A DNA stretch of 62,136 nt. Source: a virus (Duplodnaviria > Caudoviricetes). The position numbers and the translations under genes are program-made. Below the pieces are notes generated by a model. That model was not told the origin of the DNA, did no database searches, and worked only from the letters and a program-made list of their open reading frames with translations. The DNA is taken from the IMG/VR virus record IMGVR_UViG_3300021197_001167, positions 1-62,136 of that record; one strand, written 5' to 3'. Of the stretch, positions 3,750 through 57,977 are shown one piece after another; position 1 is the first letter of the stretch; each line of letters begins with the position of its first letter.

Positions 3750-4571
3750 ATGCAACCGTTTCGATATTGCGGAGAATGGATTTTTGCACGCCCATGCGAC
3801 ATAGTCGTTGAACGATTTATTGGTTGGCGCAGAGCAGGCCGACGCAGGTTGTTTCAACCTTGCGCAGTTCTACGGGCGGGAATCCACAGCATTATGCTCG
3901 ACGGATTAGACGCAGTATGGGATTTCATTAACGCAGTGCAACCCGACATGCCGAGGGCAGTAGTCAATCAAGGGATGAAGGGCGAGTTCATCGAGGAACA
4001 GCCGTTTGCGCAAGACTTACAGGATTTCATCAATGAATCCGATGCAGATTTTATCTCGGTTCGAGGTCACTACGCACATGTGCGTGAGCCGAACAGCACC
4101 TCGATGTTCTGCGGCCACTACGCAAGTAGAGTAAAAGCGCAGAAAGCCCCAAAATGTATTCTGTCTGCGCCTAAGTCATGGGGCGAATCAGCAGCATTGT
4201 TCCTCCCCATGCGTATGCGTGAGGGTGATGTGCGTTGGTTGCCATCGTTGGTGGTTGGAGATTACCCCCGCTTGGTTATTGCGCAGTCTTTGAGCGAGAG
4301 CAAAGCATTCGATATGGAGTCGGCAGTATTGATTTCAAGCGTTGTCTGCGCCGACGAGCAGGCGCAAGCAGAGATAAGACCCCACCTTTCATTAAAGCGC
4401 ACAGAACCGGCTACAATTATTTCTTCTATCGCAGAGATGCACCACCAGTTATGCGACAGCGACTACGAACCGTTGCCTTGCGACGACGAAACGAGAACAG
4501 GTTTGCGCTTCAAGGAAGCAGAGGATATTGAGCGTTCAAGAGCAGAGCGTTTATTTATTTCATTGAATTGA
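3750..4571 (+). CDS. Hypothetical protein (start uncertain)
   Basis: 273-aa ORF on the coding strand; the true 5' end may be at 3725 via a frameshift or indel (see findings). Confidence 0.65.
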   Translation: MQPFRYCGEWIFARPCDIVVERFIGWRRAGRRRLFQPCAVLRAGIHSIMLDGLDAVWDFINAVQPDMPRAVVNQGMKGEFIEEQPFAQDLQDFINESDADFISVRGHYAHVREPNSTSMFCGHYASRVKAQKAPKCILSAPKSWGESAALFLPMRMREGDVRWLPSLVVGDYPRLVIAQSLSESKAFDMESAVLISSVVCADEQAQAEIRPHLSLKRTEPATIISSIAEMHHQLCDSDYEPLPCDDETRTGLRFKEAEDIERSRAERLFISLN

Positions 4572-4749
4572 AAGAATACAGAAGAAAATAATGCGCACAC
4601 TGAAAGCCTGCGGCAGTTATTCTTTTTATTCTTCTTAGGTGTTTAGGTTAAGCCCCCGTATAATAATAGTCTTACACACCCTTAGAACAATTGAAAGAAT
4701 TGCGCAGAAGCGTTGCACTGCGACTCATTTATTTTTTCTTAATTCCTTC
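4560..4749. repeat. AT-rich dyad element A (inverted homolog of 49241-49433)
   Basis: Shares TCATTGA, CACTGAAAGC, TTATTCTTTT, TCTTACACACC, CGTTGCACT and CATTTATT, in the same order, with the reverse complement of 49241-49433. Confidence 0.75.
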
Positions 4750-4803
4750 AAATCCTCAAAAAGAATAAGCAGGTTTATACCGACGAATGCCATAGCACTA
4801 TAC

Positions 4804-5625
4804 ATGGCAGAAGCGACATGGAACTTTAGCACCATCGGAGAGACTGATTTTTATTTATCACCGGAGGTAGAATATGCTACGCACTTACTCATCATAAACA
4901 GCAATGCGCCGAGCAACCTGCCTGCCGTTCTCGGCGTAGAGTTGGGGTGCGTTGAGAAGGATGAGAGCAGAGTTGGATTTGTCACATCAAAGCATGTTTT
5001 GACGAAACCCCATCGGGTCTTGAATGAGAACAACCCAATGTGGCCGTTATTCAAATACAAGAATACACTCATTCTAATGGTGAATGCGCCGCCGACAATC
5101 TCGACGCAATTAGGCGCACATAGAAACGAATGGCTGTTCAACTATCCCCCTGCGAGAGACATTGTTATGAAGTTCGCACACCTTAAGCGCATAGGCACAC
5201 TCACAACATACGCACTTAACCGGCTATTCACTTCACCTTCACCGATGCCAAAGGAATGCGTTGCAGTGCGTGAGCATGAGTTGGGATTAGAAGAAACGAC
5301 AGAGTCGTTGCAGAGCATTTGGTCTTGGTTGCCAGTAGCCCTTCGGGGAATCACAGGCAAAAAGGGTTCAATCTATATCATGCCGAGCGAGGAAACGCAC
5401 AAGGACTTGAAATCGTTTGAAAGCAAATCTATTATCGAACCTGCAAAGTTCGATGAAATATGCACCTTGCTTAGAGTCGATGGCTACAAAATACCGAGAG
5501 GGGCGGCAAAAAGGGCGCAAGAGTCATATATTGGTTTATCGTCGGAGGCTTTAGAGCGCATCAAAGAATTGATTGGGGCGCACCATGAGGAAAACCTAAA
5601 CGACACAGGGGCGATGTTTCAATGA
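4804..5625 (+). CDS. PAC2-like (proteasome assembly chaperone fold) protein
   Basis: Pattern LLIIN...VGFVTS...PLFKY..TLILMVNAP...ARDIVMKFAHLKRIGTL resembles archaeal PAC2/Pba proteins; C-terminal GAMFQ is HbYX-like; TTTATA lies 30 nt upstream. Confidence 0.5.
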   Translation: MAEATWNFSTIGETDFYLSPEVEYATHLLIINSNAPSNLPAVLGVELGCVEKDESRVGFVTSKHVLTKPHRVLNENNPMWPLFKYKNTLILMVNAPPTISTQLGAHRNEWLFNYPPARDIVMKFAHLKRIGTLTTYALNRLFTSPSPMPKECVAVREHELGLEETTESLQSIWSWLPVALRGITGKKGSIYIMPSEETHKDLKSFESKSIIEPAKFDEICTLLRVDGYKIPRGAAKRAQESYIGLSSEALERIKELIGAHHEENLNDTGAMFQ

Positions 5626-7368: not shown

Positions 7369-7658
7369 GACATACCACAAAAGGAACTTCGGCCAACCCG
7401 CAAAATATGCGCAGACGACGATACAACAAATGGCTCGACTCTGCGGCAGAAGTTCTTGAAGAAATTGATGAAGCGAGAACTGCGGCATGGCTCATCGAGA
7501 ACCTGCCGGATAACAGACACACTCCTAAATCTACAACTGCGGCATCGCAGAAGTTGCGCAAAGACAAGAGGTTCGGCAGGTATGAAGGTTATACAACAGA
7601 TATTCTCGGTCATGCTTACAAGACATTTTTCTACTTTTACGAGGGTGATGTGCAATGA
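7365..7658 (+). CDS. Small basic winged-helix-like protein
   Basis: ATGA overlap; LRKDKRF motif is similar to the upstream gene's MRTDKRF. Confidence 0.5.
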   Translation: MRHTTKGTSANPQNMRRRRYNKWLDSAAEVLEEIDEARTAAWLIENLPDNRHTPKSTTAASQKLRKDKRFGRYEGYTTDILGHAYKTFFYFYEGDVQ

Positions 7659-8281
7659 AGAGTAAATGGTTAATCGAACAAAGACTTGCAATAGAAGACG
7701 ACCCGATGGCAATTGAAGCATTGCGTTGGGCTTTAGAATCACCCGAATGTCCTTTGTGCGCACATCGCAACAGAAGAGATTGGGAGATACAGGTTTTTAA
7801 CGGCAACATTACAACATCATACCTTGAATCAAAGTTCAATTGGGAGGTCGGCATTGTCGAAGAACACATGTCGGCGCACATGGATTATGACCCCGAAGAA
7901 GCAGAGAATGTAGAAGAGGCTCGCAGTGAAGCGATTACTACGCTTGATATGGCCGAAGATGTATTCTCACGCATAACAAAGTGGCTTGACGAATGGGAGG
8001 AACAGAAGGACATAGACGGAATCGACGCAGACTGGTTATCCACTGCTACTCGTCTTGTTGCGCAGGCCAATACAAACATTAAGTTAATTGGCACACTCAA
8101 GAAAGAGATTGGCGTTGATTCTCAAATGCTACTTGCGCATCAGCAAGTGAATGGCGTTATGGGAATCCTTGTAGATGTTCTGCGCAGTGAACCAAGACTA
8201 CTAAATCAAATCGAAATGCGCATTGGTGCGCTCAAAGCACCGACGCACACTATCGAAGCAGACTATGAGGTGATTGACTGA
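7655..8281 (+). CDS. Zn-finger/helical hypothetical protein
   Basis: CPLCAH...HMSAH putative Zn site followed by a long helical region. Confidence 0.75.
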   Translation: MKSKWLIEQRLAIEDDPMAIEALRWALESPECPLCAHRNRRDWEIQVFNGNITTSYLESKFNWEVGIVEEHMSAHMDYDPEEAENVEEARSEAITTLDMAEDVFSRITKWLDEWEEQKDIDGIDADWLSTATRLVAQANTNIKLIGTLKKEIGVDSQMLLAHQQVNGVMGILVDVLRSEPRLLNQIEMRIGALKAPTHTIEADYEVID

Positions 8282-17196: not shown

Positions 17197-17502
17197 ATGA
17201 AATTAAGTTTTAAATGCAATGAATGTGAATCGGAACTAAAAGTCGGAGTCAATAATGATTCTGCGCAGAATGTCGTTTGTCTTGAGTGCGGAGAACAGCA
17301 CCGAGTAGTCGTCAGTGTGCAGAATACTGTTTCTTCGCATAATACATACCGCAAAGAATCATGGCTTGCGAATGAATACGCCGGAAAAGGGCGCAGTATG
17401 GCTTCTATCGCCAAACAGTGCGCAGTATCACCGATGACGATTTACAAGTGGCTTAACACACACGGAATAGCAACAAGACCGACTGGCCGACGCAAAGACT
17501 GA
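17197..17502 (+). CDS. Zn-ribbon plus HTH protein
   Basis: CNEC...CLEC; SMASIAKQCAVSPMTIYKWL HTH. Confidence 0.75.
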   Translation: MKLSFKCNECESELKVGVNNDSAQNVVCLECGEQHRVVVSVQNTVSSHNTYRKESWLANEYAGKGRSMASIAKQCAVSPMTIYKWLNTHGIATRPTGRRKD

Positions 17503-17507
17503 TTGGC

Positions 17508-17993
17508 ATGTTATCCGATATGCGCATTTCATTTGCCTTTTCACACACAGAATTAGAAGGTGATTGGGGCAGTCCTTTGCAATGCGCAAGTGACAAGGGC
17601 TATCCTCATATTTTCGATGAAATGATTTATTGGGTTCTTTGGGTCGGTGAAGAAGCAATTGCATATACTGGCTCTTTGCGCATAGGGGATTTTGCGTTTG
17701 TTGGCAATACCTATGTGCGCAAGGAATGGCGAAGCAGGGGTTTGCATAAGCATCTCTTGAATGAGCGCAACAAATCCGATTTACTGCGCAACATTCCTAA
17801 AGTCACAATCATTAACCCAATCGAAGGCATAACTTCTACTCGTCTTGAGTCGGTTGTTCTTTCTCTTGGCTACACTAAGGTTGAGTCTTTTGATGATGTA
17901 GAGGACATTATGCACCAATGGGTTTATGAGGACATTGCTCATCATAACATTTGGAGGCTTAACAGTGATAGTAGAAAGAACGAAGAAGAATAG
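17508..17993 (+). CDS. GNAT-family acetyltransferase
   Basis: YVRKEWRSRGLHKHLL acetyl-CoA-binding motif A; LGYTKV C-terminal motif. Confidence 0.75.
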   Translation: MLSDMRISFAFSHTELEGDWGSPLQCASDKGYPHIFDEMIYWVLWVGEEAIAYTGSLRIGDFAFVGNTYVRKEWRSRGLHKHLLNERNKSDLLRNIPKVTIINPIEGITSTRLESVVLSLGYTKVESFDDVEDIMHQWVYEDIAHHNIWRLNSDSRKNEEE

Positions 17994-20190
17994 CGTTTTA
18001 ATTCGATACAGGGATGCAGAGGGAAACAGGCAGACGCAGACTGTTTCTGCGAATCCGTTTTGCTATATCGAGCCTCATAACATAGGCGATTTGAAAACAC
18101 CGTTCACTGTCCTTCCCGATGAAGGCTATGAGGGTCTTTATGGGGAAAAATTGCGTAGAGTTGTGTTCGACAATACCGATGATTTGCGCAGTATCTCAAA
18201 GAAGGTTCGCACATGGGAGGCGAACATTGCGCACCCAAACAAGGTTCTCGTTGAACATAATGTAAATATCCCGATGTATCAACATCGAACATGGTTCTTC
18301 GATATGGAGTGGATGATGGACTCCGGCCAAATAACAATTATCGTCATCGAAGACTCGGAGGATGGGGAGTATGTCTTATTCACGCATCCCGATTACAAGG
18401 CAGGTTTCTATGATTCAATACCTTGCAAAGACCACCCCGAAGGGATGACGGAGTGCGCAAGTGGTGAAAGGCAGTTCAAGTGCTTCAAAGACGAAAAATC
18501 ATTACTACAAGGGTTCACAAAACTTCTGCGCAAAAAAGACCCCGACATACTGACTGGTTGGAATGTAGTCAATGCAGACTGCCAACAATTATTCAAGCGA
18601 TTCAAAGCAAACGGTCTTGACATACGCACACTTTCGCCTATGCGCAAAGTTCGATATGACTTCGGGGAATGGGCGCAGCCAATCGCAGGCTACAACACCA
18701 TAGACTTGATGATTGCGTTTAAGAAGTTGTGGACTTTGAAGAACGGACAATTGCCTTCGATGGGATTAGGTGCAGTATCGACATATTGCTTGAAAGAGAC
18801 TAAGGTTGATTTGAAAGACGGGCATGATACCTATTTTACAGATATTGGCACATACCTCGACTACGCAAGACAAGATGTGCGCCTTTTACCGAGATTGAAT
18901 GACTTGGTCGGCGCATTAGATTACTTCACAGCAGTTCAACACATTGCGCAGTGCGATATACGCACTACTCCGTATGTGACGAAGGTTTTTCCTATCCTCG
19001 CTCTGCGTGACAAAGAGTTCAAAGAACAGATACCGAGCAAACCTCAATTCGAGAAGGTCGATTATGAGGGCGCAGACATTCAAGTGCCGGAGGCCGGTGT
19101 GTATCAAAACATAGGAATAATGGATATTAAGGCCATGTATCACTCAAATATCAAGAAGCATAACATTTGTTGGACTACGCTCGCTGATAAAGGAATTGAT
19201 TGCGGCAATGGAGTTAAGTTTGCGCAAAGAAATGGATTACTCGGCAGGCAGATGGATAAAATGACTGTTCTACGCAACAGATACAAGAAGTTGATGAAGT
19301 CTGCGCAAACAGAAAAAGAGCGCAAAATGTATGACGCATTACAGTATGCTACTAAATCCCTCGTTGCCTCTATGTATGGTGTGGCAGGTGACTCCAAATG
19401 TGGATTCTATCACCCCGATATTGCCTCCGCTATCACATTCACATCGAGAAAGACTTTGTTTGAACTTCGAGATATTGCAAATGAATTAGGTTGCACAGTG
19501 CGCTACGGACACACTGACTCGATTATGTGTGATGTAGAGTCTCCCGAAAAAGGTTTAGAACTTCTGCGCACAGTAAATGAGCGCATGAGTCCTATTGAAA
19601 CAGAGTTCGAGAAGTGGTGCGATACATTCCTTATCATGGCTAAGAACCGTTATGCGGCGAGTGTATCATGGACTGAAGGACAGCATCATGCCTCCGAAAT
19701 CTATGTGAAAGGCATTGAAATGAAACAAGGTCGATTACCTAATGCGCTAAAGTCTGCTCTACAATCAACTATACACGGAATACTAAACGAAAAGAATGAG
19801 GTTGAGATTACTCAAGAGATTGAGGATTTAGTGCGCAGAATAATTTCCGGTGATATTCCGGTGCGTGACCTTTGCATCAAAGCAAAGTTGAACAAGAATC
19901 TAAGCGAATACTCAACTCTCGGTGAAGCGAGAGCCGGTGCGCAGTGGGCGAACACCCATTTAGGCAAAGGTTATCGAAAGGATGATTACTTCTTGACTAC
20001 GCTAAATGAGAAGGGAGAATACATCGCCTTCGATGACCCAAGCGAAGTCGAAGGTATTGCGCAGATAGGCTACAAGCACATAGCCGAGCGATTTGTCTTT
20101 AACAAAGTTGCACCGTATTATGAAGTCATGGAGTGGGATATTGTTTCGCTTGAGAATGCACTTAACGGTTTGAACGGGAATTGGATTTGA
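17965..20190 (+). CDS. polB: Family B DNA polymerase
   Basis: ExoI FDME, ExoII GWNVVNAD, ExoIII YARQD; polymerase motifs DIKAMYHS, KSLVASMYG, YGHTDS, KNRY, VKGIE; GTG start after GGAGG. Confidence 0.95.
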   Translation: MIVERTKKNSVLIRYRDAEGNRQTQTVSANPFCYIEPHNIGDLKTPFTVLPDEGYEGLYGEKLRRVVFDNTDDLRSISKKVRTWEANIAHPNKVLVEHNVNIPMYQHRTWFFDMEWMMDSGQITIIVIEDSEDGEYVLFTHPDYKAGFYDSIPCKDHPEGMTECASGERQFKCFKDEKSLLQGFTKLLRKKDPDILTGWNVVNADCQQLFKRFKANGLDIRTLSPMRKVRYDFGEWAQPIAGYNTIDLMIAFKKLWTLKNGQLPSMGLGAVSTYCLKETKVDLKDGHDTYFTDIGTYLDYARQDVRLLPRLNDLVGALDYFTAVQHIAQCDIRTTPYVTKVFPILALRDKEFKEQIPSKPQFEKVDYEGADIQVPEAGVYQNIGIMDIKAMYHSNIKKHNICWTTLADKGIDCGNGVKFAQRNGLLGRQMDKMTVLRNRYKKLMKSAQTEKERKMYDALQYATKSLVASMYGVAGDSKCGFYHPDIASAITFTSRKTLFELRDIANELGCTVRYGHTDSIMCDVESPEKGLELLRTVNERMSPIETEFEKWCDTFLIMAKNRYAASVSWTEGQHHASEIYVKGIEMKQGRLPNALKSALQSTIHGILNEKNEVEITQEIEDLVRRIISGDIPVRDLCIKAKLNKNLSEYSTLGEARAGAQWANTHLGKGYRKDDYFLTTLNEKGEYIAFDDPSEVEGIAQIGYKHIAERFVFNKVAPYYEVMEWDIVSLENALNGLNGNWI

Positions 20191-20227
20191 CGACGGGTTT
20201 ATATGAGGACTGGTGCGTGGTGATAGT

Positions 20228-20509
20228 ATGGCGAGAGATACAAAAAAGCCCACAGTTAAACAGATGCAAGCACTACTTGCGGAAATGACTACTACACTTG
20301 AGCAACAAAACCAAATGTTGAGAGTTGTATTCGCAGAATGCGACAAGTTGAACATGGTTATGGTTCGGATGCTTGAGGCGCAGGGATTACTTCACAAAGA
20401 AGAATGTCCGGAATGCGGTTTCAAAATCAACACACCTCTTCTTGAGGACATTGCTTTACCCATCAACTGTCCGGCCTGCGAGTATAAATTGCGGGATGAG
20501 GAAGAATGA
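20228..20509 (+). CDS. Coiled-coil plus Zn-ribbon protein
   Basis: CPEC...CPAC; TTTATA 30 nt upstream. Confidence 0.7.
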   Translation: MARDTKKPTVKQMQALLAEMTTTLEQQNQMLRVVFAECDKLNMVMVRMLEAQGLLHKEECPECGFKINTPLLEDIALPINCPACEYKLRDEEE

Positions 20510-21360
20510 AAGAAGCATCGAAAATGTCAATTGAAGAATTGAAAGCCAATTCAAGTTATGACCCCACAGAAGAGGGAAAATTGCTTAAGTTGAGCAAGTC
20601 TTCATTTATGACATACTCAAAATGCCCTCGCCAATTTTGGATGCAGAAGGTTGTCTTGAAGGATATGCGAATGCCTGCTACTCCGCAGATGGAGAGGGGT
20701 TCACGCATACACACTGGACTTGAAACACTCTATGATAATTGGGAGGGTCAAAGCACTCTTGCGCCACTAATCCCTGCCGAAGCACATGAAGAAGGCATTG
20801 ATGAAATGGTGAACCTTGAGCAACAGCGCATTGATTTGTGGGGTATCGACAAGTTCAAGCCGATAGAGTATGAAGAATACCGAGCAGTCTATGACGCAGA
20901 GCGTGATGTAGTGCTTGTCGGATTGATTGACGCAGTATTAGTTCATCCCGACGGAGGACTTTGCATTTATGAATTGAAAACCGGAAACATGAATGACGGT
21001 AAATTGTCACGCACACGCAGAGAGTTGTGCTACTATGCGCACATGTTGCGCTTGATGGGTGAAACCCGACCAATTACGCACTTTGCATACCTTGCGCCCG
21101 ACGCAGACAATGTGGACTTTGTTATGAAAATGGTCGAAGACCCAAAAAGACAAGTCATGCTTGGTGATGAAAAGGGAATCCTAATCGTTGAAAAAGTCAA
21201 TGGGCGCAGTCATAACGCATTCATTAAGGCACTGGATAAAGCAGTAGCCGGACTAAAGGCGCATGAGAATCCTATGAAGTGGTCGGACTACTTTTGCCCT
21301 CAATGGTGCGATTTTGCGCCTGCTTGCGAGAGTGAAATGACGGGTGTTGGAGAATGGTGA
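20506..21360 (+). CDS. Cas4-like PD-(D/E)XK exonuclease
   Basis: CPRQFW, GSRIH, GLID and ELKTG motifs; C-terminal CPQWC...C completes a four-Cys Fe-S set. Confidence 0.85.
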   Translation: MKEASKMSIEELKANSSYDPTEEGKLLKLSKSSFMTYSKCPRQFWMQKVVLKDMRMPATPQMERGSRIHTGLETLYDNWEGQSTLAPLIPAEAHEEGIDEMVNLEQQRIDLWGIDKFKPIEYEEYRAVYDAERDVVLVGLIDAVLVHPDGGLCIYELKTGNMNDGKLSRTRRELCYYAHMLRLMGETRPITHFAYLAPDADNVDFVMKMVEDPKRQVMLGDEKGILIVEKVNGRSHNAFIKALDKAVAGLKAHENPMKWSDYFCPQWCDFAPACESEMTGVGEW

Positions 21361-21744
21361 TACCCCCAAAGCATCTGCGCATAAAGTGCGTAAAACCACT
21401 GGCTCATAATCCACAGTTTGAAGGAAAGGCGCATTGTATGCACTGCGCAAGAGATAACAAGAAAGAGTAAGGTGAAACAGAATGAAACCCGAATGGCAAT
21501 GGCAAATTGAAAAGAAACCAATTGGGAAATCATTTCCTCCCCAAGAAGTATTAAATTATTTGAAAGGTGTCAAGAAATGATTATCTGCGCAGAATGTGAC
21601 GGTGAAATGGTCGTCAGCAACGAGAAGGGAAAACCAATGATGCTCTTAACTGGCGATATTGATACTGGCAATGAGCGAATCGCTGTATGCAAGGTGTGCA
21701 ATCATCGTGTGGTTCTTAAGGACTGATGCTCTCCGTTGGTTTGT

Positions 21745-22734
21745 ATGCTACAATTCCCCCGTCAAGTCGGACTCAAGCGAACCATTTGTCATAACAGACA
21801 AGAGTTCGTTCAGTATATCCGCAGGCTCAACGGAAAAACCTCAATCTACACCTCCCTATACCCCTTCGATGAAGTCGGGGATTATGACTCTGCCATCATG
21901 GATAGAGCATGGTGGGATTTCGATATGAACGACGATTTCACTATGGATGATGTGAAGCATGATGTTGCCGCACTAATTCAGCGTTTAGAGGGCGATGTGA
22001 GGCTCGTTGCGACCGGCAGAGGGTTTCATATCCACCAGTGCTTTAAACGCCCCGTAAGAGGCCGAGAATGGGCTATTCACCTTGACAGGTATGAGCGTAA
22101 AATGGCAGAAGGTTTGAGTAGCCTCGATGGAGTCGGTTATCCGGAAAAATTGACAAGGGTTTCGGGAACATACAATCCGAAGCGCAAGAAGTGGGCAGTG
22201 ACTATCCCTGCGCATGACTTCGCACAAGACCCCTTCAATTACCGGATTCCGGAAAAACCTTTACCGGAATACATCAATATCGACCCCTTTCAAGGCAGTA
22301 TTACGGAAAATGAATGCTTTGATTTGGTAAAATGGGCTTTTGACAACCCAATCCCTGTGCGCAAAAGTGTTTCAGTTGGTGAAGGAATATCGGTCGGCGC
22401 AACAAACGGAGAGTGCGCACTGCCACCTTGTCTTGAGCGTGCTATCGGTGTATCAAACCCACCTCATCATGTTCGGGTCGCATTGGTTCAAGAGATGCGC
22501 AGACAGTTGGCATTCTACGCACCCCCCTCCGCACTATCCAACGAGGAAAACCATGATATAACAAACAAAATATGCCTTTTCATAGAGAGTCTTGGTTGGC
22601 AAGACTACATCGAAGGAATTACTCGAAAATATGTAGCAGGTGCAGTGCGCAAATATGAACATGCACCGAGTCCGAACTGGTATCGAAAACATAATTTATG
22701 CAATGGAGAAGGGTGTTGGTTCTGTGCGCAGTGA
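21745..22734 (+). CDS. Archaeo-eukaryotic primase, catalytic domain fused to a PriL-like C-terminal domain
   Basis: WWDFD and TGRGFHIH catalytic motifs; LPPCL, HHVR and terminal Cys cluster resemble the PriL C-terminal domain. Confidence 0.85.
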   Translation: MLQFPRQVGLKRTICHNRQEFVQYIRRLNGKTSIYTSLYPFDEVGDYDSAIMDRAWWDFDMNDDFTMDDVKHDVAALIQRLEGDVRLVATGRGFHIHQCFKRPVRGREWAIHLDRYERKMAEGLSSLDGVGYPEKLTRVSGTYNPKRKKWAVTIPAHDFAQDPFNYRIPEKPLPEYINIDPFQGSITENECFDLVKWAFDNPIPVRKSVSVGEGISVGATNGECALPPCLERAIGVSNPPHHVRVALVQEMRRQLAFYAPPSALSNEENHDITNKICLFIESLGWQDYIEGITRKYVAGAVRKYEHAPSPNWYRKHNLCNGEGCWFCAQ

Positions 22735-49059: not shown

Positions 49060-49240
49060 GTTCTGTCTTATGAAGGGTTGCTTCATAAAGGTATGCCCGA
49101 AGAAGCGTAATAAAACATCACATAACATGCTGTATTATGAATACTTTCGCAGAAGTCTTTGCAAAAGGCGGAGTGACACTTATTATTCTTGAAATACTGT
49201 GGTGGCTTCTTGTCCTCATATTTATTCTTTCAAGGCGTAA

Positions 49241-49433
49241 GAAGAAATTAAAAAAGAATAAATGGGCTTAAGTGCAACGGTTTCGGGTTATTCTTTTAAT
49301 TACTCTTAAGGTGTGTAAGAATTATTCTTACAGAATAATCCGCCCTTTTATCTAAATGTCTTAGAAGAAATAAAAGAATAAAGTCAAGTTGCTTTCAGTG
49401 CAACGATTATTTCTTTATTTATTTTGTCAATGA
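49241..49433. repeat. AT-rich dyad element B at the transcription divergence point (candidate origin/regulatory hub)
   Basis: Two AAAGAATAA...TTATT(T)CTTT units, each enclosing AGTGCAACG; central palindrome TGTAAGAA-TTA-TTCTTACA (49314-49332); inverted homolog of 4560-4749. Confidence 0.75.
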
Positions 49434-49492: not shown

Positions 49493-50719
49493 ATGAGCGA
49501 AGTCGAGTATCACGATGTAGTCAAGTCCGAAATTGAACATTATAATGGTAATATGGCGCATTTTTCTCGCCACATGGCAAAGGTTATGCCCGAACTTACA
49601 TCTGAAAGTCACCGATGGCGTTTGCGTATGCTAAAACAACACATGGGCGACATTTTTCCTGTTCTTGAAAGTGTTGATTACAATGCAGAAATACCAAAAC
49701 AATTTGACGGAACTCAAGCACAGTTAATACGCATTATGCAAAAGCGATTTCCCGAAATCTCAAAAGCAGGTTGGGAGTCAAGAGTGCGTGCGGCATGGGC
49801 GAGAGAAGCAGTCACTCGAACAGAAACACCTCATTTTATTGTTGAACACTTGAAAAAGAAGTCAAGTAGCCAAGAAGACCTATGGAATGCTATTGAAGAA
49901 CGCTCAAAGGCGGCAATTCTCGCTAATGAAGATGCTCGTTGGGCTACATTTCACATGAAATCCGATAAGCGATACATAGGTATTGCGTTTCAAAGCGACC
50001 AACACATCGGCAATCCATTCTGCGACCATGAAAGGTTGCGTGAAGACACAGAAGCAATTGAAAGACACCCCGAATGCTATGTTATACACGCAGGCGACTA
50101 TATCGACAACTTTATGATTGACAAACCTCGCCCTGCAATGAAAGCACCTATTCCTCCTTCTATCCAGTGGCAGTTGTGCGAACACTACATTAACATGAGT
50201 CCTAATTCACTTATGGCAATTGTTGCGGGCAATCACGACCTTTGGACTGCGGGCGCAACAGATTATGACCCTCTAAAGCGTCTTGCTCAAGACAGAGGCG
50301 TTTTGTATCACCCGTATGAGTTAAACCTAAAGGTTATTCATGGCGACATTCCTTATCACCTTAGTATTCGACACAAGCGAAGAGGTAATTCAAACCTTGA
50401 CCCAAGCCGTGTAATTAAGAAAATGTGGGATGACGGAGAATGCGACTTTGATATTGGAGTTATCGGGCATCATCACACACCTTCTGTTGTTCCCTTTACT
50501 CGTCATGCAGTTGAGCGTTGGGCTTTAAGGCCGGGGGCTTACAAGACAATCGACAGTTTCGGTGAAATGTGCGGTTTTCCGAGAGAACGCCCAACATCAC
50601 CTATTGTTATCCTTGATTCTCAAACAAGAGATATTCAAGCATTTACAGACCTTAGACATGGGTTGCGATTACTCAACACACTGAATGGGAGAGATGTTAA
50701 TGCCTTTGTGGATGAGTAA
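49493..50719 (+). CDS. Calcineurin-like metallophosphoesterase with an N-terminal helical extension
   Basis: SDQHIG, GDYID, GNHD, RH and GHHH motifs. Confidence 0.88.
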   Translation: MSEVEYHDVVKSEIEHYNGNMAHFSRHMAKVMPELTSESHRWRLRMLKQHMGDIFPVLESVDYNAEIPKQFDGTQAQLIRIMQKRFPEISKAGWESRVRAAWAREAVTRTETPHFIVEHLKKKSSSQEDLWNAIEERSKAAILANEDARWATFHMKSDKRYIGIAFQSDQHIGNPFCDHERLREDTEAIERHPECYVIHAGDYIDNFMIDKPRPAMKAPIPPSIQWQLCEHYINMSPNSLMAIVAGNHDLWTAGATDYDPLKRLAQDRGVLYHPYELNLKVIHGDIPYHLSIRHKRRGNSNLDPSRVIKKMWDDGECDFDIGVIGHHHTPSVVPFTRHAVERWALRPGAYKTIDSFGEMCGFPRERPTSPIVILDSQTRDIQAFTDLRHGLRLLNTLNGRDVNAFVDE

Positions 50720-50924
50720 GGATAAAGAAGTCCGAATTGCCGATATGGGCGAAGACTTCGTCGCAATAAACATTTTTAGTGAAGAATATGTCGTTGGTGT
50801 TATGCTTGAAAGAGAAGAAATTGAAAAACTTGTTCTTGCTATGGCAGAATACTGCGGAATTGGTCTTTTTGGAAAAAACGGAGATGGTCTAAATGGTTCG
50901 TTTAATGACAACCTTTCATCTTGA
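50712..50924 (+). CDS. Small hypothetical protein
   Basis: Coupled ORF between the phosphoesterase and TerL genes. Confidence 0.55.
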   Translation: MSKDKEVRIADMGEDFVAINIFSEEYVVGVMLEREEIEKLVLAMAEYCGIGLFGKNGDGLNGSFNDNLSS

Positions 50925-52383
50925 GCGTAGTAGATTTGATATACGCCATTTTTATGAATGGCTCGGCTACAATTGGGGTGAACACATTGGAACATGGCTT
51001 GACATGTATGGAGACAGAAGAGATAAACAAGTTCACCGTGTTTGTATTATTGCACCGAGAGACCATTCAAAGTCCACTACACTTAGGGTAAAAATCCTTC
51101 ATCAACTGCTTTTTGAAAAGTGGCGTGGAAAACCCTTTACTATTTGGCTATTTTCCGCAAATAAAGACCTTGCAATGAACCGTTTAGATGAAATCCGTCA
51201 AGACTTAAAAAGGCATCCCGAACTTTCTAAAAAAATCGACACTACTAAGGGCAATCGTTTTGAACTCCGTTTGACAAATGGTGCTTGGATTAAGGCAACA
51301 TCAGTCGGGTCGGGTATTCGTGGTGAACACCCCGCCGCAATTGCACTTGATGATATAATAGACGACCAAAACGACATGTCCTATGATAACTACCAACAGT
51401 GGTTTAGGAAAAAATTAACTCCGATGTTGTCTCCTAAGACTTCGCTTTACTGCGTAGGAACTCCTATGAGTATGAATGACCTTTACCATACAGAAATGTT
51501 AAACAATGATGCTTGGGACACATGGCAAGAAGGCGCAATAACAAATTATGATGAGTGGCGCAATGACCCCGACATTAAACCTGTTTGCTTATGGCCTTCG
51601 GAACGCCCACTTGAGTTTCTTATGGAACAACGAGAAGCAATTGGCGAACTGGCTTTTGCGCAAGAATATCTGTGTAAGGTAGTCGATGATGATAGCGCAG
51701 TATTCCCTCAAACACTTACACGCAAAAATCTAAGCATGGATGCAGTCTTGCAAAAGAAAAAATTGTATAACGGCGAGTATGTTGTAGGTTTTGACCCATC
51801 ACACGGTATCGGACAAGACTATACAGTAGCAGTAGTAGTTCGACAAGACGAAGAAGGCTTTATTCACATTGTAGATATGTGGAGGCGCAACGATTTCCCC
51901 CCTGCAAAGCAAATACAGAAGATTGCAGACTTAGATGAGGCATTTAAACACCCTGTATTCGCATTTGAGAGCGCAGGGTTTCAAAATCTGTATCAATCGC
52001 TCATAAATCAACATGGTTTAACGCTAAACCTTAAAATGAGCAAGGTATCAAACAAAACACTTAAGCAAGGCTTGTTAAATCGCCTTAGAGTGTGGTTTGA
52101 ACAAGAAAAAGTCATAATCCCCTATGGAAACGACGCTACAAGAATGACTATGAGCATACTACTGGATGAATTAGAGTCTCATGCGTGGAAAGACGGCGAT
52201 ATAGTCGATAAAGGCAAGCATAACGACACTGTAATGGCCTTAGCGCACGCCATAGACCAAATAAAGTCATCAACAAGTGGCGGTTTAGCCATGACAACAG
52301 GTGCTTTAGACGCTTCACAGTGGAATACAGCCAAAAAAACAAAACATTTAAGAAGAAATGGTAGATTTATACCGTTTTTTTAG
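50893..52383 (+). CDS. terL: Terminase large subunit
   Basis: APRDHSKST (Walker A), ALDD (Walker B), GTP, FAQEY; nuclease motifs GFDPS and HNDTVMA. Confidence 0.95.
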   Translation: MVRLMTTFHLERSRFDIRHFYEWLGYNWGEHIGTWLDMYGDRRDKQVHRVCIIAPRDHSKSTTLRVKILHQLLFEKWRGKPFTIWLFSANKDLAMNRLDEIRQDLKRHPELSKKIDTTKGNRFELRLTNGAWIKATSVGSGIRGEHPAAIALDDIIDDQNDMSYDNYQQWFRKKLTPMLSPKTSLYCVGTPMSMNDLYHTEMLNNDAWDTWQEGAITNYDEWRNDPDIKPVCLWPSERPLEFLMEQREAIGELAFAQEYLCKVVDDDSAVFPQTLTRKNLSMDAVLQKKKLYNGEYVVGFDPSHGIGQDYTVAVVVRQDEEGFIHIVDMWRRNDFPPAKQIQKIADLDEAFKHPVFAFESAGFQNLYQSLINQHGLTLNLKMSKVSNKTLKQGLLNRLRVWFEQEKVIIPYGNDATRMTMSILLDELESHAWKDGDIVDKGKHNDTVMALAHAIDQIKSSTSGGLAMTTGALDASQWNTAKKTKHLRRNGRFIPFF

Positions 52384-52634
52384 GTTTATAAGCCTAATTT
52401 GAGAAAAATACGGGTAATTTTTTGAGGTGGTTGGCGTGTGCGGGGCGGCGACAGCGCACTGTTTTTGGCGCAAAATCAGCGCACTATATAGCCCTATTTA
52501 GAAAATCGAACAGGCTCGCAGTGTTGCGTTTTTGACCCTTCTGCGCACTATTTTTCGAGTTGAAATGAGGGTTTCTATTGAGTTCTATTGATAATTAGTG
52601 TGTGCATGCCCAAAAAAAGTGCCATCTGAAAAAT

Positions 52635-53565
52635 CTAAACGATTGACTGAAAGCCTATACTGCGCAGACTAATGAACCTCAAGTTAAGTAGTGCCACCCC
52701 TATTCGATGCACTGCGCTGTTGTTTGCCATCGGAAATGTTTGCTTTTGTGTGTTGGTTGGCTCTCTGCGCTGTATCTATTCGATGCACTGAAAGCCTGTT
52801 GATGTTGCCATAGGCTCGCAGTGTCCTCTTTTTGAAGTGATAATTCAACACTCATCCAATTAGTGCGCAGAGAACGAAAACCGATGCACTGCGCCCCACT
52901 TGGTTGCCTTGTTGAACTGATTCTATCAAATATCAGCACATTATGCCGGTTTCCGGAAACAATGCGCCGAATAAAGGATATGAGAAAAGTTGCGCAAAGA
53001 GAGGGCTAAACGGTGGACTGAACGGCTGTTATGGTGGTTTGAGTGGGTCAATTTTCCAGATTTCGGACTTACATAATACGGTAAAACAAGGCTCTAAACG
53101 ACGCACTGCGAAGCCGACACTACTTCAAAACCGATGCACTGCGCCAAAAACGATGCACTGCTCGACCGATGGCCTCTGTCGGGTCTGTTTTGGGCGGAGG
53201 TTTCCCTCGCAATAATGGGGCGCAGTGTGTCGATTGTGGGGTGATTTCCGGTTTTCGGAGTGAGTCGCCACATTTCGCCGTTTGTCGGATTGTCTGCGCC
53301 GAAATCCGGCGTTTGCTGAAATGGGCTATTTCCCTAAACGATGCACTGCGAGGCTGTTCACTCTCTAAACGATAGACTGCGAAGCGGGCTTGCAGTGTGC
53401 CTTTTAGGGTTGTGCGCTCACTATATGAGAAGAGACACCGCCGCAGTGTGCCATTTAGGATTCCTAAACGATAGACTGAAAGCCTGCGCATTTGCTCTGA
53501 TTGGGTGATTCAAAACCGTTGCACTGCAAGACTGCGCAGAGTGCTAAACGATAGACTGCGAGGCT
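52635..53565. repeat. Iteron-like dispersed repeat field, approximately CTAAACGAT(GC/AG)ACTG(CGA/AA)AGC
   Basis: Direct copies start near 52635, 52700, 52776, 52876, 53094, 53126, 53145, 53334, 53365, 53464, 53511 and 53544; partial inverted copies (GGCT(C/T)GCAGTG) near 52512, 52812 and 53387. Confidence 0.85.
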
Positions 53566-53652
53566 GTTGTGTGCTACTGGAAAAGTGGTGTAAAAAATAA
53601 ACCGTTGTGCGTCAAGGTTTAGTATATGAGAATAACCCGTTCTTGAACGCTG

Positions 53653-55659
53653 TTGCATCACATTTCCCTTCATATACCCTCAATGAAAGAGCAAAGCGGA
53701 GGCATCCAAATGATACAAAACAAAATATTGAAAATGTTGTTCATCTGCCTCGCAGTGGTGCTTTTTGCACCTTGCGAGTCGATGACTGAAAGCAATACCG
53801 TTAATGCTACGGAAATGACCGAAACCCCACAAACCGTTGCACTGCAACACATTGACAGCGCAGAATTGCCCCAGAGCAAACCTATGCACCGTCACTCGTT
53901 CAAGCGAGCAGTCAAGCGGTTTAACCTTGCAATGAGCAGGCCGAGAGTTCTTCTTAGGCTCGCAGTGCAACGAATAAGGGATGGTTTGAGCAAGAACTAC
54001 GATAGCGAAGGAATGCGCAGAGTTGTAGAAACAGAGGCGCAGTGTCCTTCTTGTGATGTGAAGGAGTCGAATTATTCGCCCTTTGTCATCAGGATTGCAG
54101 GCCAACCAATCGAGGCGCAGTGCGTCGATTGCGCCCTTGATTTGCAACTTGAGATGAGTGAACAAATGCCACGCAGTCAAGCGTTTAGCGCATTGATTCT
54201 CGGCATTTCTTTTGCCCTTGTTGCAACTCTGTTTGACCCAACACTGGCGAGCAGTGTGGCGTTTATCGGTGCTGTGCGCCGACCAGTTCCGGAGGAATTG
54301 AAGCCATTGAAAGCCGCCGGTTTGATGGTGCGCAGAATTGCGAAAAACCGTGACACTGAATGCTATGAGTGCGGTTGCGAATTGACCCATAATGGCGAAT
54401 ACGGCGCACCTGTTGTTATGATGAGTCGAGTCGGATATACCAAGAAAAAGCCACACTGCGCCCAATGTGCAGTTATGCGATTCACTGGCAACCCTCGACC
54501 AAAACCAACACCGGAAACACCCGAAAAACCGCAACCTGCGCCACTGCCGGAGGTCAAACCGACACCGACACCGGAGGCAAAACCTGCGCCAGTTATCGAG
54601 GTAAAAGGCGACACTGCGCAACAATTGGCGGCCATGATTGCAACTCTTGCAACTGGCGCAATTGATGAAGAAGCAGTGCGCAAAATTGCCCAAGAAGAGG
54701 ACACTGCGCTAATGTCGAAGGTCGGCGACCAAGTGAGAAATGAGATAACCGAGGCCATCAAAAATCTGGCAAAACCAACCCAAATCACTCTGCGCAAAAA
54801 CGGCAAAAACATTGAACTGAAAGGCATTCGCCACTTCAAAACCGAAGAGATTTTGTTCTCGATTGTGAACGCAAAAGCGCAGAACTTGAACTTAACCGGC
54901 GAAGCAGGCACTGGCAAAACGCATTTGCTCGACCAAATCCATGAAGCACTTGAGAAGTCGGGATGGTTCAAGGAAATGGGGGTCAAGAAGCCTCGCAGTT
55001 GCTACATTATGTCTGCCAACAAGGACATGCAAGCACCGGAGTTAATCGGTCGTGAATCGCCCAGATTTTTCGATGATGACTCCGGCAGACCTGCCGGAGA
55101 ATGGGATTTTCTGCCGAATGAACTACTGGCTCAATTTGAGCATGGTGGCATTCTTGGACTTGATGAAATGGACAGGTTCGCAGACTCGACATTGAGTGCG
55201 CTAAATGCGGCACTGGCAAACGGTTTCATCACCACGCCAAAGGGTGTAAGAGTCATGCGTCATCCGGCCTGCATCATCATTGCAACAGGCAACACAAAAG
55301 GTCAAGGCGCAAGCCCAAAATACACCGCCGCAAACAAGCAAGATTCGGCCACCCTCGACCGTTTCGCAGGCAATTTCATCGACATTGACTACGACCCCGC
55401 AATCGAAGAAGCAATTTGCGCAAATCCGGAACTACTCGATGCACTGCGCAACATTCGCAGGCTTGGAGATAAGCACCAAATCAAGGGTTGCGTGGTCTCA
55501 TATCGAGCAATGATGCAAGGTCGCCAATATGTCGAAGCGGGTTGCAGTGTTGCGTTTTTCGCTCGCCGGTTCGCTTTGCAATTCGGCGCAGAGAATGCGA
55601 TAAAGTTGGGTCACGGACAAGATGTTGAGTTCGACTCCGGCCTTTGGGGAGGGGCTTAA
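53653..55659 (+). CDS. MoxR/CbbQ-type AAA+ ATPase with a long N-terminal extension (start uncertain)
   Basis: LTGEAGTGKT, LGLDEMD, ATGN and DSATLDRF motifs; the N-terminus has CxxC pairs, a hydrophobic segment and a Pro-rich linker. Confidence 0.88.
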   Translation: MHHISLHIPSMKEQSGGIQMIQNKILKMLFICLAVVLFAPCESMTESNTVNATEMTETPQTVALQHIDSAELPQSKPMHRHSFKRAVKRFNLAMSRPRVLLRLAVQRIRDGLSKNYDSEGMRRVVETEAQCPSCDVKESNYSPFVIRIAGQPIEAQCVDCALDLQLEMSEQMPRSQAFSALILGISFALVATLFDPTLASSVAFIGAVRRPVPEELKPLKAAGLMVRRIAKNRDTECYECGCELTHNGEYGAPVVMMSRVGYTKKKPHCAQCAVMRFTGNPRPKPTPETPEKPQPAPLPEVKPTPTPEAKPAPVIEVKGDTAQQLAAMIATLATGAIDEEAVRKIAQEEDTALMSKVGDQVRNEITEAIKNLAKPTQITLRKNGKNIELKGIRHFKTEEILFSIVNAKAQNLNLTGEAGTGKTHLLDQIHEALEKSGWFKEMGVKKPRSCYIMSANKDMQAPELIGRESPRFFDDDSGRPAGEWDFLPNELLAQFEHGGILGLDEMDRFADSTLSALNAALANGFITTPKGVRVMRHPACIIIATGNTKGQGASPKYTAANKQDSATLDRFAGNFIDIDYDPAIEEAICANPELLDALRNIRRLGDKHQIKGCVVSYRAMMQGRQYVEAGCSVAFFARRFALQFGAENAIKLGHGQDVEFDSGLWGGA

Positions 55660-55740
55660 ACAGGCCACTGCGCACCGGAATGACGGCCAGTTCAATACTT
55701 GCTCGACCAATGCGCAGAATCTGGAGAAAATGGAGGTGAC

Positions 55741-56703
55741 ATGATGACAAAAGGAGATATTTCAAAGGCGCAGTCTTGCGTTAATGGCAATCCTTGCAAC
55801 GGCTATTCAGTCGAGGCAGTCGAAGGAATCGGAAAGGTGACGGTTTGCATGGGTGTTGCGCCGCTAATCAGCGCACTAAGTTGCAAAAAGTCGGTTGGAG
55901 TTCATGGCGGAAAGTTCCGATATGGCACAACAGCACCGGCAAAAGCAAACGACTGGCGAGACATACCGGCAGAGTGCTTCAAGAACGGCAAAAGCGGGAC
56001 ACACGGCGACATTTACGAGTCGTTCTACACAAACGAAACCCAAGCACCGGAGGACATTTCAAAGGCTGTTTGGGATGCAGTGCCGGAAGCAATGAAAGAG
56101 GTTCTAAACGATGAAGTGCGCTTCAATTCGATACTTGGAGAAATCAACCTTGACCGCCTTTTCATGGGCGACCGTCGATTTTTGCGCAGAAGAGTTCAAG
56201 ACGAGCAAAACAAGCCCATAATCGGGCTTGCAGTGCCTGTTCAAGCGAACTGCAACATCAGAACCGAAATCGTTTCAATTCGTTCAATTGTTTGCGCCAT
56301 TGCGGTCGAAATCCTTGAATCAATGGGCTACTGCGTTGAAGTCTATGCGGTGGCTTATGGTCGTGGCGAATACGGCGACAGTGGGCAAAAGAACGGACTT
56401 CAAGCCCTTCGCATCAAGCAAGCCGGTGAGACTATGGCGACCTCAACTATCCTCAATTCAACGAGTGGTTGGGCTTTCCGCACTGCGTTTTTCGGTATGA
56501 TTGAATACGCCGGAGATGCTCAAGCCGGACTTGGCTCAAGTTGCGCAATGACAGAGGAACAAATCGACTTACTGCAAGCCTATTTGCCTGCTGTTGATGA
56601 CTTCTTAATGTTGAACTGCTATCCAACTTCAAACAATCGAGAGGCCGCAATCAAGCAAGCCATTGATGAATTGGTGCGCAACATTACGCCATACCTTGAA
56701 TGA
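55741..56703 (+). CDS. VWA-like partner of the MoxR ATPase
   Basis: INLDRLFMG, VEILESMGYCVEVY and AFRTAFF segments; position after the MoxR gene; GGAGGTG RBS. Confidence 0.65.
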   Translation: MMTKGDISKAQSCVNGNPCNGYSVEAVEGIGKVTVCMGVAPLISALSCKKSVGVHGGKFRYGTTAPAKANDWRDIPAECFKNGKSGTHGDIYESFYTNETQAPEDISKAVWDAVPEAMKEVLNDEVRFNSILGEINLDRLFMGDRRFLRRRVQDEQNKPIIGLAVPVQANCNIRTEIVSIRSIVCAIAVEILESMGYCVEVYAVAYGRGEYGDSGQKNGLQALRIKQAGETMATSTILNSTSGWAFRTAFFGMIEYAGDAQAGLGSSCAMTEEQIDLLQAYLPAVDDFLMLNCYPTSNNREAAIKQAIDELVRNITPYLE

Positions 56704-57222
56704 GGCACTGCAAGCCTAAAACGGACTGAAAACGGACTGAAAAAACAACCAAACGGAGGACAAAAAACAAACGAAAAGGCTTGAGTTCAAGGTGTGCGCA
56801 CCGAGCCTTGAACAGCCCACTGCTCGCCATCGGTGCGTTTTTCTTATTTTCAAAAACGCAACACTGCGCCCCATTTCGGGATTCTCTGCGCAGTCGGTCA
56901 AAATCGAATCAGCGCAAGCCATCGAAAAAATCGACAGCGCAGAAAATCGACAACGCAGAAATTATTGTGCAGAACAGAGCAGAAAATCGGCACGCAGAAC
57001 TTCTCCCCCCCTTAGCCAAGTATGCGCAAAATAATCTCTGCAATTTTTTTCGTTTTTCGCAGCCTGCGCCCTGCACACACATACACACACACATGAGGCA
57101 CACACATGCACATAATGCACACCTGCATAATGCGTCATAAAATTATATTGCGTGCGGGAACAGGCGGGCAGTGGTGCTTTTCATGTGAGGGGTTTATATC
57201 CCCCTGCCGCTTAGGGTTGAAC

Positions 57223-57480
57223 ATGGAAGACAACACCATAGGAAGCAAGACAGCGAATGACGAGGATTGGGTTTTCAGTGCAGAAACGAAGCACTGCGAG
57301 ACTGGTGAGGTGGCGTTTTGCATCGTCATTATCACCGTAGAAGACAGAAAAGAGATGCCGAGCATGGGCGAATGGCTTGAACAATTCTGCCAAGCCACTC
57401 AAACAGTTCCGACAAGGTTCACAATCACCGACATGACAGGCGCAGAGATTGCAAAGGGTCGAGCAGAGGTGGGCGAATGA
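57223..57480 (+). CDS. Hypothetical early protein
   Basis: ATG lies 30 nt after TTTATATCCCCC. Confidence 0.65.
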   Translation: MEDNTIGSKTANDEDWVFSAETKHCETGEVAFCIVIITVEDRKEMPSMGEWLEQFCQATQTVPTRFTITDMTGAEIAKGRAEVGE

Positions 57481-57977
57481 ACGGCATTCTCGGACTTTTG
57501 CTCATCGCATCCATGCTATACGCATACTGTGCGCTCATGGACTACGCATTCAAAAAGGCAATGGGGGAGTCATCCGTCAATCATTTGGAGACTCCGGAGA
57601 TGAACCCCCCTGCCACCACTCAAACCACGCTTGAGGATTTCAGCGCAGACGAGGATTTTCATATCAAGTTCTGCGTCGGATGCACCAAGCGCACCGGCTT
57701 TTCATACGGCGAGTGCAACCTCTGCGCTCTGCCAACCGAAGACGCAGACCTCAAGCCTGCGCAACAGACGCACATGCAATGGGCGAAGGCGAGAGCATTG
57801 GCCGAGTTGCCGAACCACATGCTCGCAATCGCTTCGATGACCTCGGACATGCGCAAGCATCCCGAAACCGAAGCCCTTGAAATGATGTGCGCAATGTTCG
57901 CCATGACGAACCCAAATCCCCAAACGACGAGAGCATTCATTGAAGGATTTAACGACGCATTGGGGGTGAACGCATGA
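57477..57977 (+). CDS. TM plus PIP-box-like plus Zn-finger early protein
   Basis: Hydrophobic N-terminus, QTTLEDF, CVGC...CNLC. Confidence 0.65.
   Translation: MNGILGLLLIASMLYAYCALMDYAFKKAMGESSVNHLETPEMNPPATTQTTLEDFSADEDFHIKFCVGCTKRTGFSYGECNLCALPTEDADLKPAQQTHMQWAKARALAELPNHMLAIASMTSDMRKHPETEALEMMCAMFAMTNPNPQTTRAFIEGFNDALGVNA

Follow-up and report, generated by a model that had tools for sequence, protein, structure and literature searches.

A 23-bp motif array between the terminase gene and the early arm of an uncultured siphovirus genome: a possible transcription-control site

The stoperators of mycobacteriophage L5 are sites of the gp71 repressor, and P1 incC/incA, the lambda origin and iteron plasmids carry many asymmetric repeats of about 20 bp, mostly direct, whose specificity changes between close relatives. 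Repeated docking sites, three to seven of them next to terS, lie beside the terminase genes at lambda cosB and at SPP1 pacL and pacR. In coliphage TLS, start codons are preceded by oriented intergenic repeats of 21 bases, 18 in all, which the authors of that work liken to stoperators or enhancer sites (PMC11447400). The iss of phage T5 is described as a large untranslated stretch of siphovirus DNA, located where the first-expressed genes begin and containing repeats and inverted repeats in large number (10.1101/866236). Here we describe an array of a 23-bp motif in IMG/VR record IMGVR_UViG_3300021197_001167, from an uncultured marine phage, the whole of which (62,136 bp, class linear, CheckV completeness estimate 100%) is referred to below as the window. 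The array fills the gap between the gene for the terminase large subunit (TerL) and the first gene of the rightward early arm. Its copies are enriched, occupy places conserved in relatives, stand also at the heads of operons and overlie coding DNA. Judging from the sequences, we put at roughly 0.4 the probability that a transcription-control factor common to the whole family recognises the motif, and that the lineage of the window has multiplied this site where the early arm begins.

The motif array and the copies over early genes

As TerL ends at 52383 and the next real gene starts at ATG 53710, the gap comprises 52384-53709. The start of this next gene, which encodes an AAA_5 (MoxR/CobS-like) ATPase, is placed at that ATG and not at TTG 53653 of the raw open reading frame (ORF); GGAGG lies upstream of it, and the N-terminus that follows (MIQN...), with its hydrophobic segment, is common to relatives. 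The motif is asymmetric and 23 bp long, with the consensus CTAAACGATGCACTGCGAGGCTG. A repeat search of the gap returned 12 direct 25-nt copies within 52635-53568, and a weight matrix built from these copies alone, applied with a cut-off of at least 10 bits, gave 33 sites genome-wide, where Markov shuffles gave 1.3-1.6 (5 at most). Of these 33, the gap has 17 (13 forward, 4 reverse), 53710-57500 has 12 and the rest of the genome (57 kb) four. When up to three mismatches are allowed, the 15-mer AAACGATGCACTGCG matches the window 23 times against 2.6 expected, a count that 0 of 100 shuffles reached, and 15 of the 23 matches fall within 52517-54186. Spacing in the gap is irregular (19-188 bp).

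An earlier, sequence-only reading of this DNA had described about 1.3 kb without a credible ORF after TerL, holding at least 12 direct and several partial inverted copies of an approximately 20-bp motif at irregular spacing, with further copies in the MoxR ORF at about 53831 and, inverted, at about 53957, and a partial copy near 56704. The genome-wide matrix map, which that reading had itself named as a check, agrees on each point: 29 of the 33 sites (about 1.5 expected) lie in 52384-57500, and the three outlying copies are found at 53830(+), 53955(-) and 56696(+). The A/T tracts that it had also mentioned are there to a small degree, two 40-bp windows (52384, 52564) reaching 70% A+T and the remainder offering little.

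A conserved protein-coding frame that explained the repeats would have told against the array, and no such frame was found. The ORFs of the 1326-bp gap have no Pfam or PHROGs match, and thirteen of them, of 40-123 aa, are matched in translation chiefly by the two closest relatives, with identities of 40-83%, whose TerL is 95-98% identical. Best matches were interrupted by stops in 15 of 39 cases, and small genes in the gap were ruled out on these grounds. A protein-level repeat, in which CxxC motifs encoded by CGCAGTG would be the source of the copies, was likewise dismissed, neither orientation nor reading phase being uniform among the copies, as was a CRISPR-like array, from which the irregular start-to-start spacing and the presence of both orientations differ. 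No Rfam match was obtained in 52000-54700 at E up to 1, sigma-70-like promoters in 52200-53900 numbered 0 against 2.0 expected, and RNA folding of the region in the window was not in excess (mean z -0.67 and -0.87 against a background near -0.35).

The motif continues into the first early genes. Eight copies lie in the AAA_5 gene (53745-, 53830+, 53901-, 53955-, 54166-, 54244-, 55432+ and 55537-) against 0.41 in synonymous-codon shuffles (largest 3 in 300), and two in the gene of the DUF7192 protein (56104+, 56560+) against 0.07. These gene-borne copies, too, take both orientations and more than one reading phase, and are selected at the level of DNA; their spread by insertion is disfavoured because a 23-bp insertion would break the frame. 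Beyond them, the stretch 56704-57223 holds forward motif-like copies, AAAATCGACAGCGCAGAA-type repeats and CACACA runs. It is probably non-coding, and the raw ORFs 56781-57140 and 57106-57480, for which G006, a complete genome discussed below, offers no match, may be spurious.

Within the array, one of the 22 sequencing runs, which were compared through their assembled contigs, has a contig that joins 52660 to 53387 with 11 other letters between. With only 21 letters fitting on the shorter side, this joint may, at most tentatively, represent a 726-bp deletion between two motif copies.

The motif in related genomes

A TerL search retrieved 43 loci. Conservation in related genomes, which the sequence-only reading had proposed as a further check, is found: in all relatives with TerL at least 79% identical, the heptamer CACTGCG is concentrated 3' of TerL and the matrix detects arrays of 12-19 sites. 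Three complete relatives, the genomes G001, G002 and G004, have 28-39 sites each, against about 1 expected, with 19-24 in the first 2 kb past TerL. Forward and reverse sites in five relatives range from 12-4 to 18-1 (iterated matrix, at least 17 bits), the gap of the window having 13-4. At TerL identities of 79-95%, site positions in the first 500 bp are kept (approximately 127, 254, 321, 396, 432 and 498 bp past TerL) and the spacers diverge; the majority fraction is 0.74 in sites against 0.57 in spacers, figures from an alignment in which non-orthologous copies may have been paired. At the site 52877-52899, AAACCG..ACTGCG.CC is invariant in 11 of 11 clade-A sequences.

The near-identical L009 offers the closest comparison. 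It is about 92-100% identical to the window up to approximately 52400 and 52-82% identical thereafter, the DNA of TerL and of the two genes before it being 88-100% identical (88-95% for the latter two). Its array retains the same site spacings, and about half of its sites carry ACCG where the window has ACTG (the 3' half changing from ACTG to ACCG or ACAG); its solitary site before the portal gene is altered at the same base as its array. In a search for longer contigs with the L009-type motif, only L009 has more than one match among the 30 stretches returned. In run X1, a contig break and a change of depth at 52395-52401 fit a mosaic boundary; the near-identity of L009 ends at approximately 52400-52500.

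Outside the early arm, the motif recurs in a duplicated module of about 215 bp (4566-4810(+) and 49125-49425(-); 75% mean column identity), each copy of which has two motif copies followed by T-rich blocks. The pre-portal site, at -2990 from the TerL end and about 1500 bp before the TerL start, is on the reverse strand and thus points to the portal gene; 10 of 12 loci retain it, as do G002 and G004. The pre-replication site lies approximately +13.5 to +14.3 kb from the TerL end in G001, G002 and G004, forward in all but G004. The layout of the module also suggests that ORF 4639-5625 truly starts at ATG 4805. G006, a complete clade-B genome with TerL 70% identical, has the motif at both modules (-3005, reverse, and +16628, forward) and one copy, similar to that at 52877-52899, at +4256 (4.3 kb past TerL), and has no array. 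Because G006 keeps the module copies without the array, we take the element to be older than the array and to belong to the heads of major gene blocks.

The sister clade (L032/G006, L036, L038, L041 and L029-L031) places a field of perfect hairpins in the first 6 kb or so past TerL, from the same boundary as the array. These hairpins, with GAA, TTCG, TACG and TAAA loops, occur at 11-15 per kb against 0.1-1 per kb upstream. In G006, 128 of them have a stem of 7 bp or longer, where shuffles give 13-15; 77 of the 128 lie in the first 6 kb past TerL, and their density decays downstream. Folding of this genome gives mean z values of -4.8, -2.8 and -1.2 in the first three 2-kb bins, the window being near background. 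In L038, the AAA_5 and DUF7192 genes contain nine and ten hairpins against 0.48 and 0.35 in synonymous shuffles.

Directly past TerL, at the beginning of the gap, lies a block, made up of an A/T-rich tract, GAGGTGGTTGGCG, a G+C-rich hairpin and a T-run, that is conserved across clades. Its box GAGGTGGTTGGCGTG is unique in the window and invariant in 11 of 11 clade-A sequences. No covarying stem was found in the clade-A block by RNAalifold; clade-B sequences of the same layout, read directly, have perfect 9-10-bp stems, which come in five different sequences, and a T-run. The block is probably the terminator of the TerL operon, though it could be a cleavage site.

Genome layout and neighbouring features

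Coordinates are collected in Table 1. Most genes of the window have no family match, and comparison of the record ends revealed no end repeats. The closest TerL match among 50,697 deposited phage records is only 25% identical, with no cultured phage close; a search of 185,579 bacterial and archaeal genomes returned no TerL relative, and deposited phages offered no near DNA match to the window. At approximately 52000-54000 composition steps from a G+C fraction of about 0.42 (TerL, structural genes) to about 0.50, and AT skew climbs from about 0.05 to 0.15-0.25 in the early arm. GC skew tracks gene direction, without a turn at the array.

Table 1. Positions of the array, its motif copies and the surrounding features in the window
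Feature	Position	Strand	Details
Non-coding motif array	52384..53709	.	1326 bp, TerL to first early gene; 17 sites of at least 10 bits
Motif copy	52511..52533	-	20.6 bits; orientation varies among relatives
Motif copy (seed)	52635..52657	+	Repeat search and matrix
Motif copy (seed)	52700..52722	+	Repeat search and matrix
Motif copy (seed)	52776..52798	+	Repeat search and matrix
Motif copy AAAACCGATGCACTGCGCCCCAC	52877..52899	+	Best kept site in aligned first 630 bp of array
Motif copy (seed)	53006..53028	+	Repeat search and matrix
Motif copy (seed)	53094..53116	+	Repeat search and matrix
Motif copy	53127..53149	+	15.0 bits
Motif copy (seed)	53146..53168	+	Repeat search and matrix
Motif copy	53215..53237	-	11.3 bits
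Motif copy, consensus-like CTAAACGATGCACTGCGAGGCTG	53334..53356	+	Repeat search, 15-mer search and matrix
Motif copy (seed)	53365..53387	+	With the 53385(-) copy makes a stem-loop, then T-run
Motif copy	53385..53407	-	20.9 bits
Motif copy	53436..53458	-	10.3 bits
Motif copy (seed)	53464..53486	+	Repeat search and matrix
Motif copy (seed)	53512..53534	+	Repeat search and matrix
Motif copy (seed)	53544..53566	+	Last strong copy; 144 nt upstream of ATG 53710
Second, smaller field of forward motif-like copies	56696..57304	+	56696, 56852, 57282; short forms 56719, 56730; plus AAAATCGACAGCGCAGAA-type repeats; coding doubtful
Module copy 1, before replication operon	4566..4810	+	Motif copies 4588(+), 4706(+)
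Module copy 2, divergent region between portal gene and TerL operon	49125..49425	-	Motif copies 49388(-), 49262(-), pointing to portal gene
Solitary copy inside gene 7655-8281	7916..7938	-	17.6 bits; reverse counterpart at +16.6 to +18.1 kb in G001, G002, G004
Solitary copy inside TerL	51165..51187	-	14.1 bits; counterpart at -1215 (reverse) in G002 only
Conserved post-TerL block	52384..52475	+	A/T-rich tract, box GAGGTGGTTGGCGTG (52424-52438), variable G+C-rich segment, then TTTTTGGCG
TerL gene	50893..52383	+	PHROG phrog_38, E=6.5e-42; Pfam Terminase_6C; left edge of gap
Short TerL operon	49493-52383	+	TerL is the last gene
AAA_5 (MoxR/CobS-like) ATPase, first early gene	53710..55659	+	Pfam AAA_5, E=2.2e-12; PHROG 249
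DUF7192 gene	55699..56703	+	Pfam DUF7192
Early/replication arm	53710 through record end to ~23.7 kb	+	AAA_5 ATPase, DUF7192 protein, HNH nuclease, family-B DNA polymerase, PD-(D/E)XK exonuclease, ERCC4 nuclease
Siphovirus structural genes	49128 down to 23854	-	Portal, tail tube, tape measure, 2433-aa protein

In the AAA_5 ATPase, an N-terminal membrane anchor is accompanied by another hydrophobic stretch, by CxxC motifs in pairs and by a linker rich in Pro; among relatives the protein measures 649-921 aa, the N-terminal half varying from about 300 to 570 residues. The replication operon includes a 431-aa protein (5804-7099), 71% identical to its G006 counterpart, with a GQKGSGKN P-loop, a CFEEF acidic box, an LDRRF motif and an arginine-finger-like motif. 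It has no significant family match and, its motifs being judged by eye, looks like an MCM- or Mg-chelatase-like AAA+ helicase. Resemblance to a helix-turn-helix (HTH) protein was recognised only in a 101-aa product (17197-17502), whose zinc-ribbon and HTH matches are weak and recall the IS1 InsA N-terminus; it is a candidate for site-specific binding of DNA. On reading, the 2433-aa, 854-aa and 805-aa proteins resemble fibre, Gly/Ser-rich and scaffold-type proteins, and none of them finds a PDB sequence match at E below 0.1.

The window contains the palindrome TGCGCA 227 times, against 11.8 expected from base composition, with, for example, 3.5-6 per kb in 17926-22734. Each of the three reading phases has it, on either strand, as does non-coding DNA, and it contains 48% of all GCGC; the array-bearing relatives G001, G002 and G004 have 155-178 copies, and more distant clades no enrichment. 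No methyltransferase to accompany it was recognised in the window. Words of this hyper-abundant type overlap the degenerate 10-mer CGNYNSACTG, which finds matches across the early arm and was set aside as evidence for the array.

Candidate functions and comparison with described systems

The asymmetric motif heads the replication and portal units and is oriented with them, and 76% of the array runs forward before the early arm. Such placement is expected of a transcription-control site, not of an origin iteron or a packaging signal, and the fit lies in the motif's being part of a module present twice, once before the replication operon and once before the portal operon, and in its retention there in the clade without an array. 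Because the element marks the heads of major gene blocks, we take the array to be a lineage-specific amplification of an older control site; the absence of sigma-70-like promoters from the region was counted in favour. We infer that a protein binds the sites, that transcription is the process concerned and in which direction it would be affected. The gap would then be a non-coding control region, extending from the probable TerL terminator to the first gene of the rightward early/replication arm, and the element the recognition site of an activator, repressor or promoter-specificity factor common to the phage family. Single or paired copies in the module would serve the replication operon and, in the opposite direction, the portal/structural operon, while the copy at the head of the early arm would have been amplified in the lineage of the window, giving the 17 or more sites of the gap and about 12 others that overlie the first early genes. 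Many bound molecules of the factor would throttle or shut off rightward early transcription; alternatively, the bound array might serve as a sink, setting the time at which the replication and structural operons are switched to.

Several observations weigh against such a control site. Seventeen sites in 1.3 kb without a gene are far denser than known operator or stoperator sets, six of the eight copies in the AAA_5 gene are reverse, relatives differ in the orientation of the first array site, and two conserved solitary copies, 7916(-) and 51165(-), sit inside genes, opposite to transcription. No sigma factor, RNA polymerase or repressor was recognised among 104 ORF translations compared with Pfam and PHROGs and 29 compared with NCBIfam, which leaves the weak zinc-ribbon and HTH protein as the sole candidate for a phage-encoded regulator. 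Promoters of a phage RNA polymerase, suggested by a possible resemblance of the motif to those of the T7 type, were set aside, no polymerase or sigma factor having been found. Finally, in the sister clade this region is occupied by hairpins whose sequence is arbitrary, and the region may thus have a role beyond the motif, since a sequence-specific DNA-binding factor leaves the hairpins unexplained.

The sequence-only reading had inferred a protein-binding array for the replication origin, the packaging start or staged genome entry. Binding by a protein would still be the natural reading, with sites better conserved than spacers, positions kept and coding copies exceeding shuffles; it is the role that points elsewhere. 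As an origin, the 23-bp repeats would be iterons for a phage initiator, acting in initiation or copy control, with the solitary copies near the replication operon autoregulating the initiator. This we find doubtful, even though the repeats are asymmetric, numerous and mostly direct, the 13 forward and 4 reverse copies in 1326 bp agreeing with the direct repeats, several in number and 17-23 bp long, that iteron origins contain, although the motif has shifted in concert in L009, as would a specificity pair, and although the conserved sites 4588(+) and 7916(-) flank the operon of the helicase-like P-loop protein. In 52000-54000 there is no DnaA box with one mismatch or fewer, and A+T richness is confined to the two 40-bp windows noted above; helical phasing at 10.0, 10.5 and 11.0 bp is inconsistent among six arrays, with a weak signal at 11.0 bp in the window and L010 only (p about 0.02). 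The skew does not turn, the array is about 14 kb from the helicase-like gene, the nearest of its kind, and family scans of the window ORFs recognised no replication initiator. An origin would leave unexplained the conserved site in the late portal promoter region, and the sister clade does without any array. About equally doubtful is a genome-end region, in which the post-TerL box would be the cos or pac cleavage site and the array a cosB- or pacL-like docking region for terminase, or else the leading end that enters first, as in T5 first-step transfer (iss) or at the T7 left end. The array begins directly 3' of TerL (1 bp past the stop codon) and precedes the early genes, no other non-coding element is as well conserved as the box across clades A, B and others, the near-identity of L009 stops and the contig of run X1 breaks just there, and in both clades the polar zone of elements starts exactly there and decays downstream. 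Against packaging, however, no small terminase subunit (TerS) family match was obtained in the ORF scans of the window, and TerL and the two genes upstream are hardly changed in L009 despite the altered 3' half of its motif. Related contigs break at unrelated places, short contigs share no end base past the box, DnaA boxes like those of the T5 iss are absent, the box, hairpin and T-run are more simply a terminator, and copies at two distant operon heads are unexpected of a packaging signal.

Somewhat less likely still, we suspect, is that the first 5-6 kb past the TerL terminator carry, in every lineage of the family, a dense, lineage-specific nucleic-acid overprint that disregards gene boundaries and marks a directional process starting from that boundary. 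This proposal stems from the use by two clades of different elements – the 23-bp motif in the clade of the window, arbitrary perfect hairpins (about one per 80 bp), even within AAA_5 and DUF7192, in the sister clade – over the same zone, which a transcription factor does not explain. The process could be stepwise or transcription-coupled entry of the leading genome end, protection of that end or deliberate slowing of a polymerase; it might read DNA or RNA, and the array would be one of several solutions to the same problem. An element acting as RNA is improbable. The gap would then be transcribed as a long leader or non-coding RNA, the 23-mer being an RNA-binding or processing signal and the sister-clade hairpins its counterpart. 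Most copies do run with transcription, and the region in the sister clade is strongly structured, with hairpins selected within coding sequence; in the window, however, folding is not in excess and Rfam is silent, a quarter of the gap copies and most of those in AAA_5 are reverse, orientation flips at a fixed position between relatives, and the pre-portal copies are on the other strand, in a promoter region. We give marginally less credence again to a functionless repeat that local recombination or gene conversion would have multiplied within a rapidly evolving spacer. The region does diverge much faster than its flanks when compared with L009, and the possible deletion joint in one run, with its 21 letters on the shorter side, would suit recombination between copies. 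Yet the spacers are less conserved than the sites, positions persist at TerL identities of 79-95%, and copies in two conserved genes exceed synonymous-codon shuffles about 20-fold.

For a phage group without a cultured relative, the 23-bp element is a first handle on how the programme is organised, with one signal at the heads of the early, replication and structural blocks that is amplified about twenty-fold at one junction. Should the factor be found, the array would provide a natural system for asking how a gene switch is timed through site number, and in what way site and factor change together between near-identical phages. The hairpins of the sister clade, selected even in conserved genes, suggest a constraint on the leading part of the genome of which a non-exhaustive literature search returned no description.

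When set beside the iteron fields of P1, lambda and plasmids, the array differs in having neither regular or phased spacing, nor a clear unwinding element, nor DnaA boxes; it is, moreover, several times longer than those origins and is not beside an initiator gene. Relative to cosB, pacL and pacR, it has at least 17 sites, lies downstream of terL with no terS found, and shares its motif with two distant operon heads. With the T5 iss it has in common a repeat-rich untranslated stretch at the start of the first-expressed genes; the iss, however, lies in a long terminal repeat with eight DnaA boxes, features that the window lacks at its record ends and in 52000-54000, respectively. Family scans named no homologues of T5 A1 or A2, for which no specific search was made. 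The sites of L5 and TLS are scattered one per intergenic gap, whereas here 17 are packed into a single 1.3-kb stretch, others overlie coding DNA and both orientations occur. All the same, the L5 stoperators resemble the motif in being asymmetric, 13-23 bp long and present in tens of copies per genome, with solitary ones that occupy short non-coding stretches at the heads of gene blocks and point with transcription. The TLS repeats resemble it in these respects as well (PMC11447400). The array thus fits the dispersed-regulatory-site kind in part, its density being unusual for that kind.

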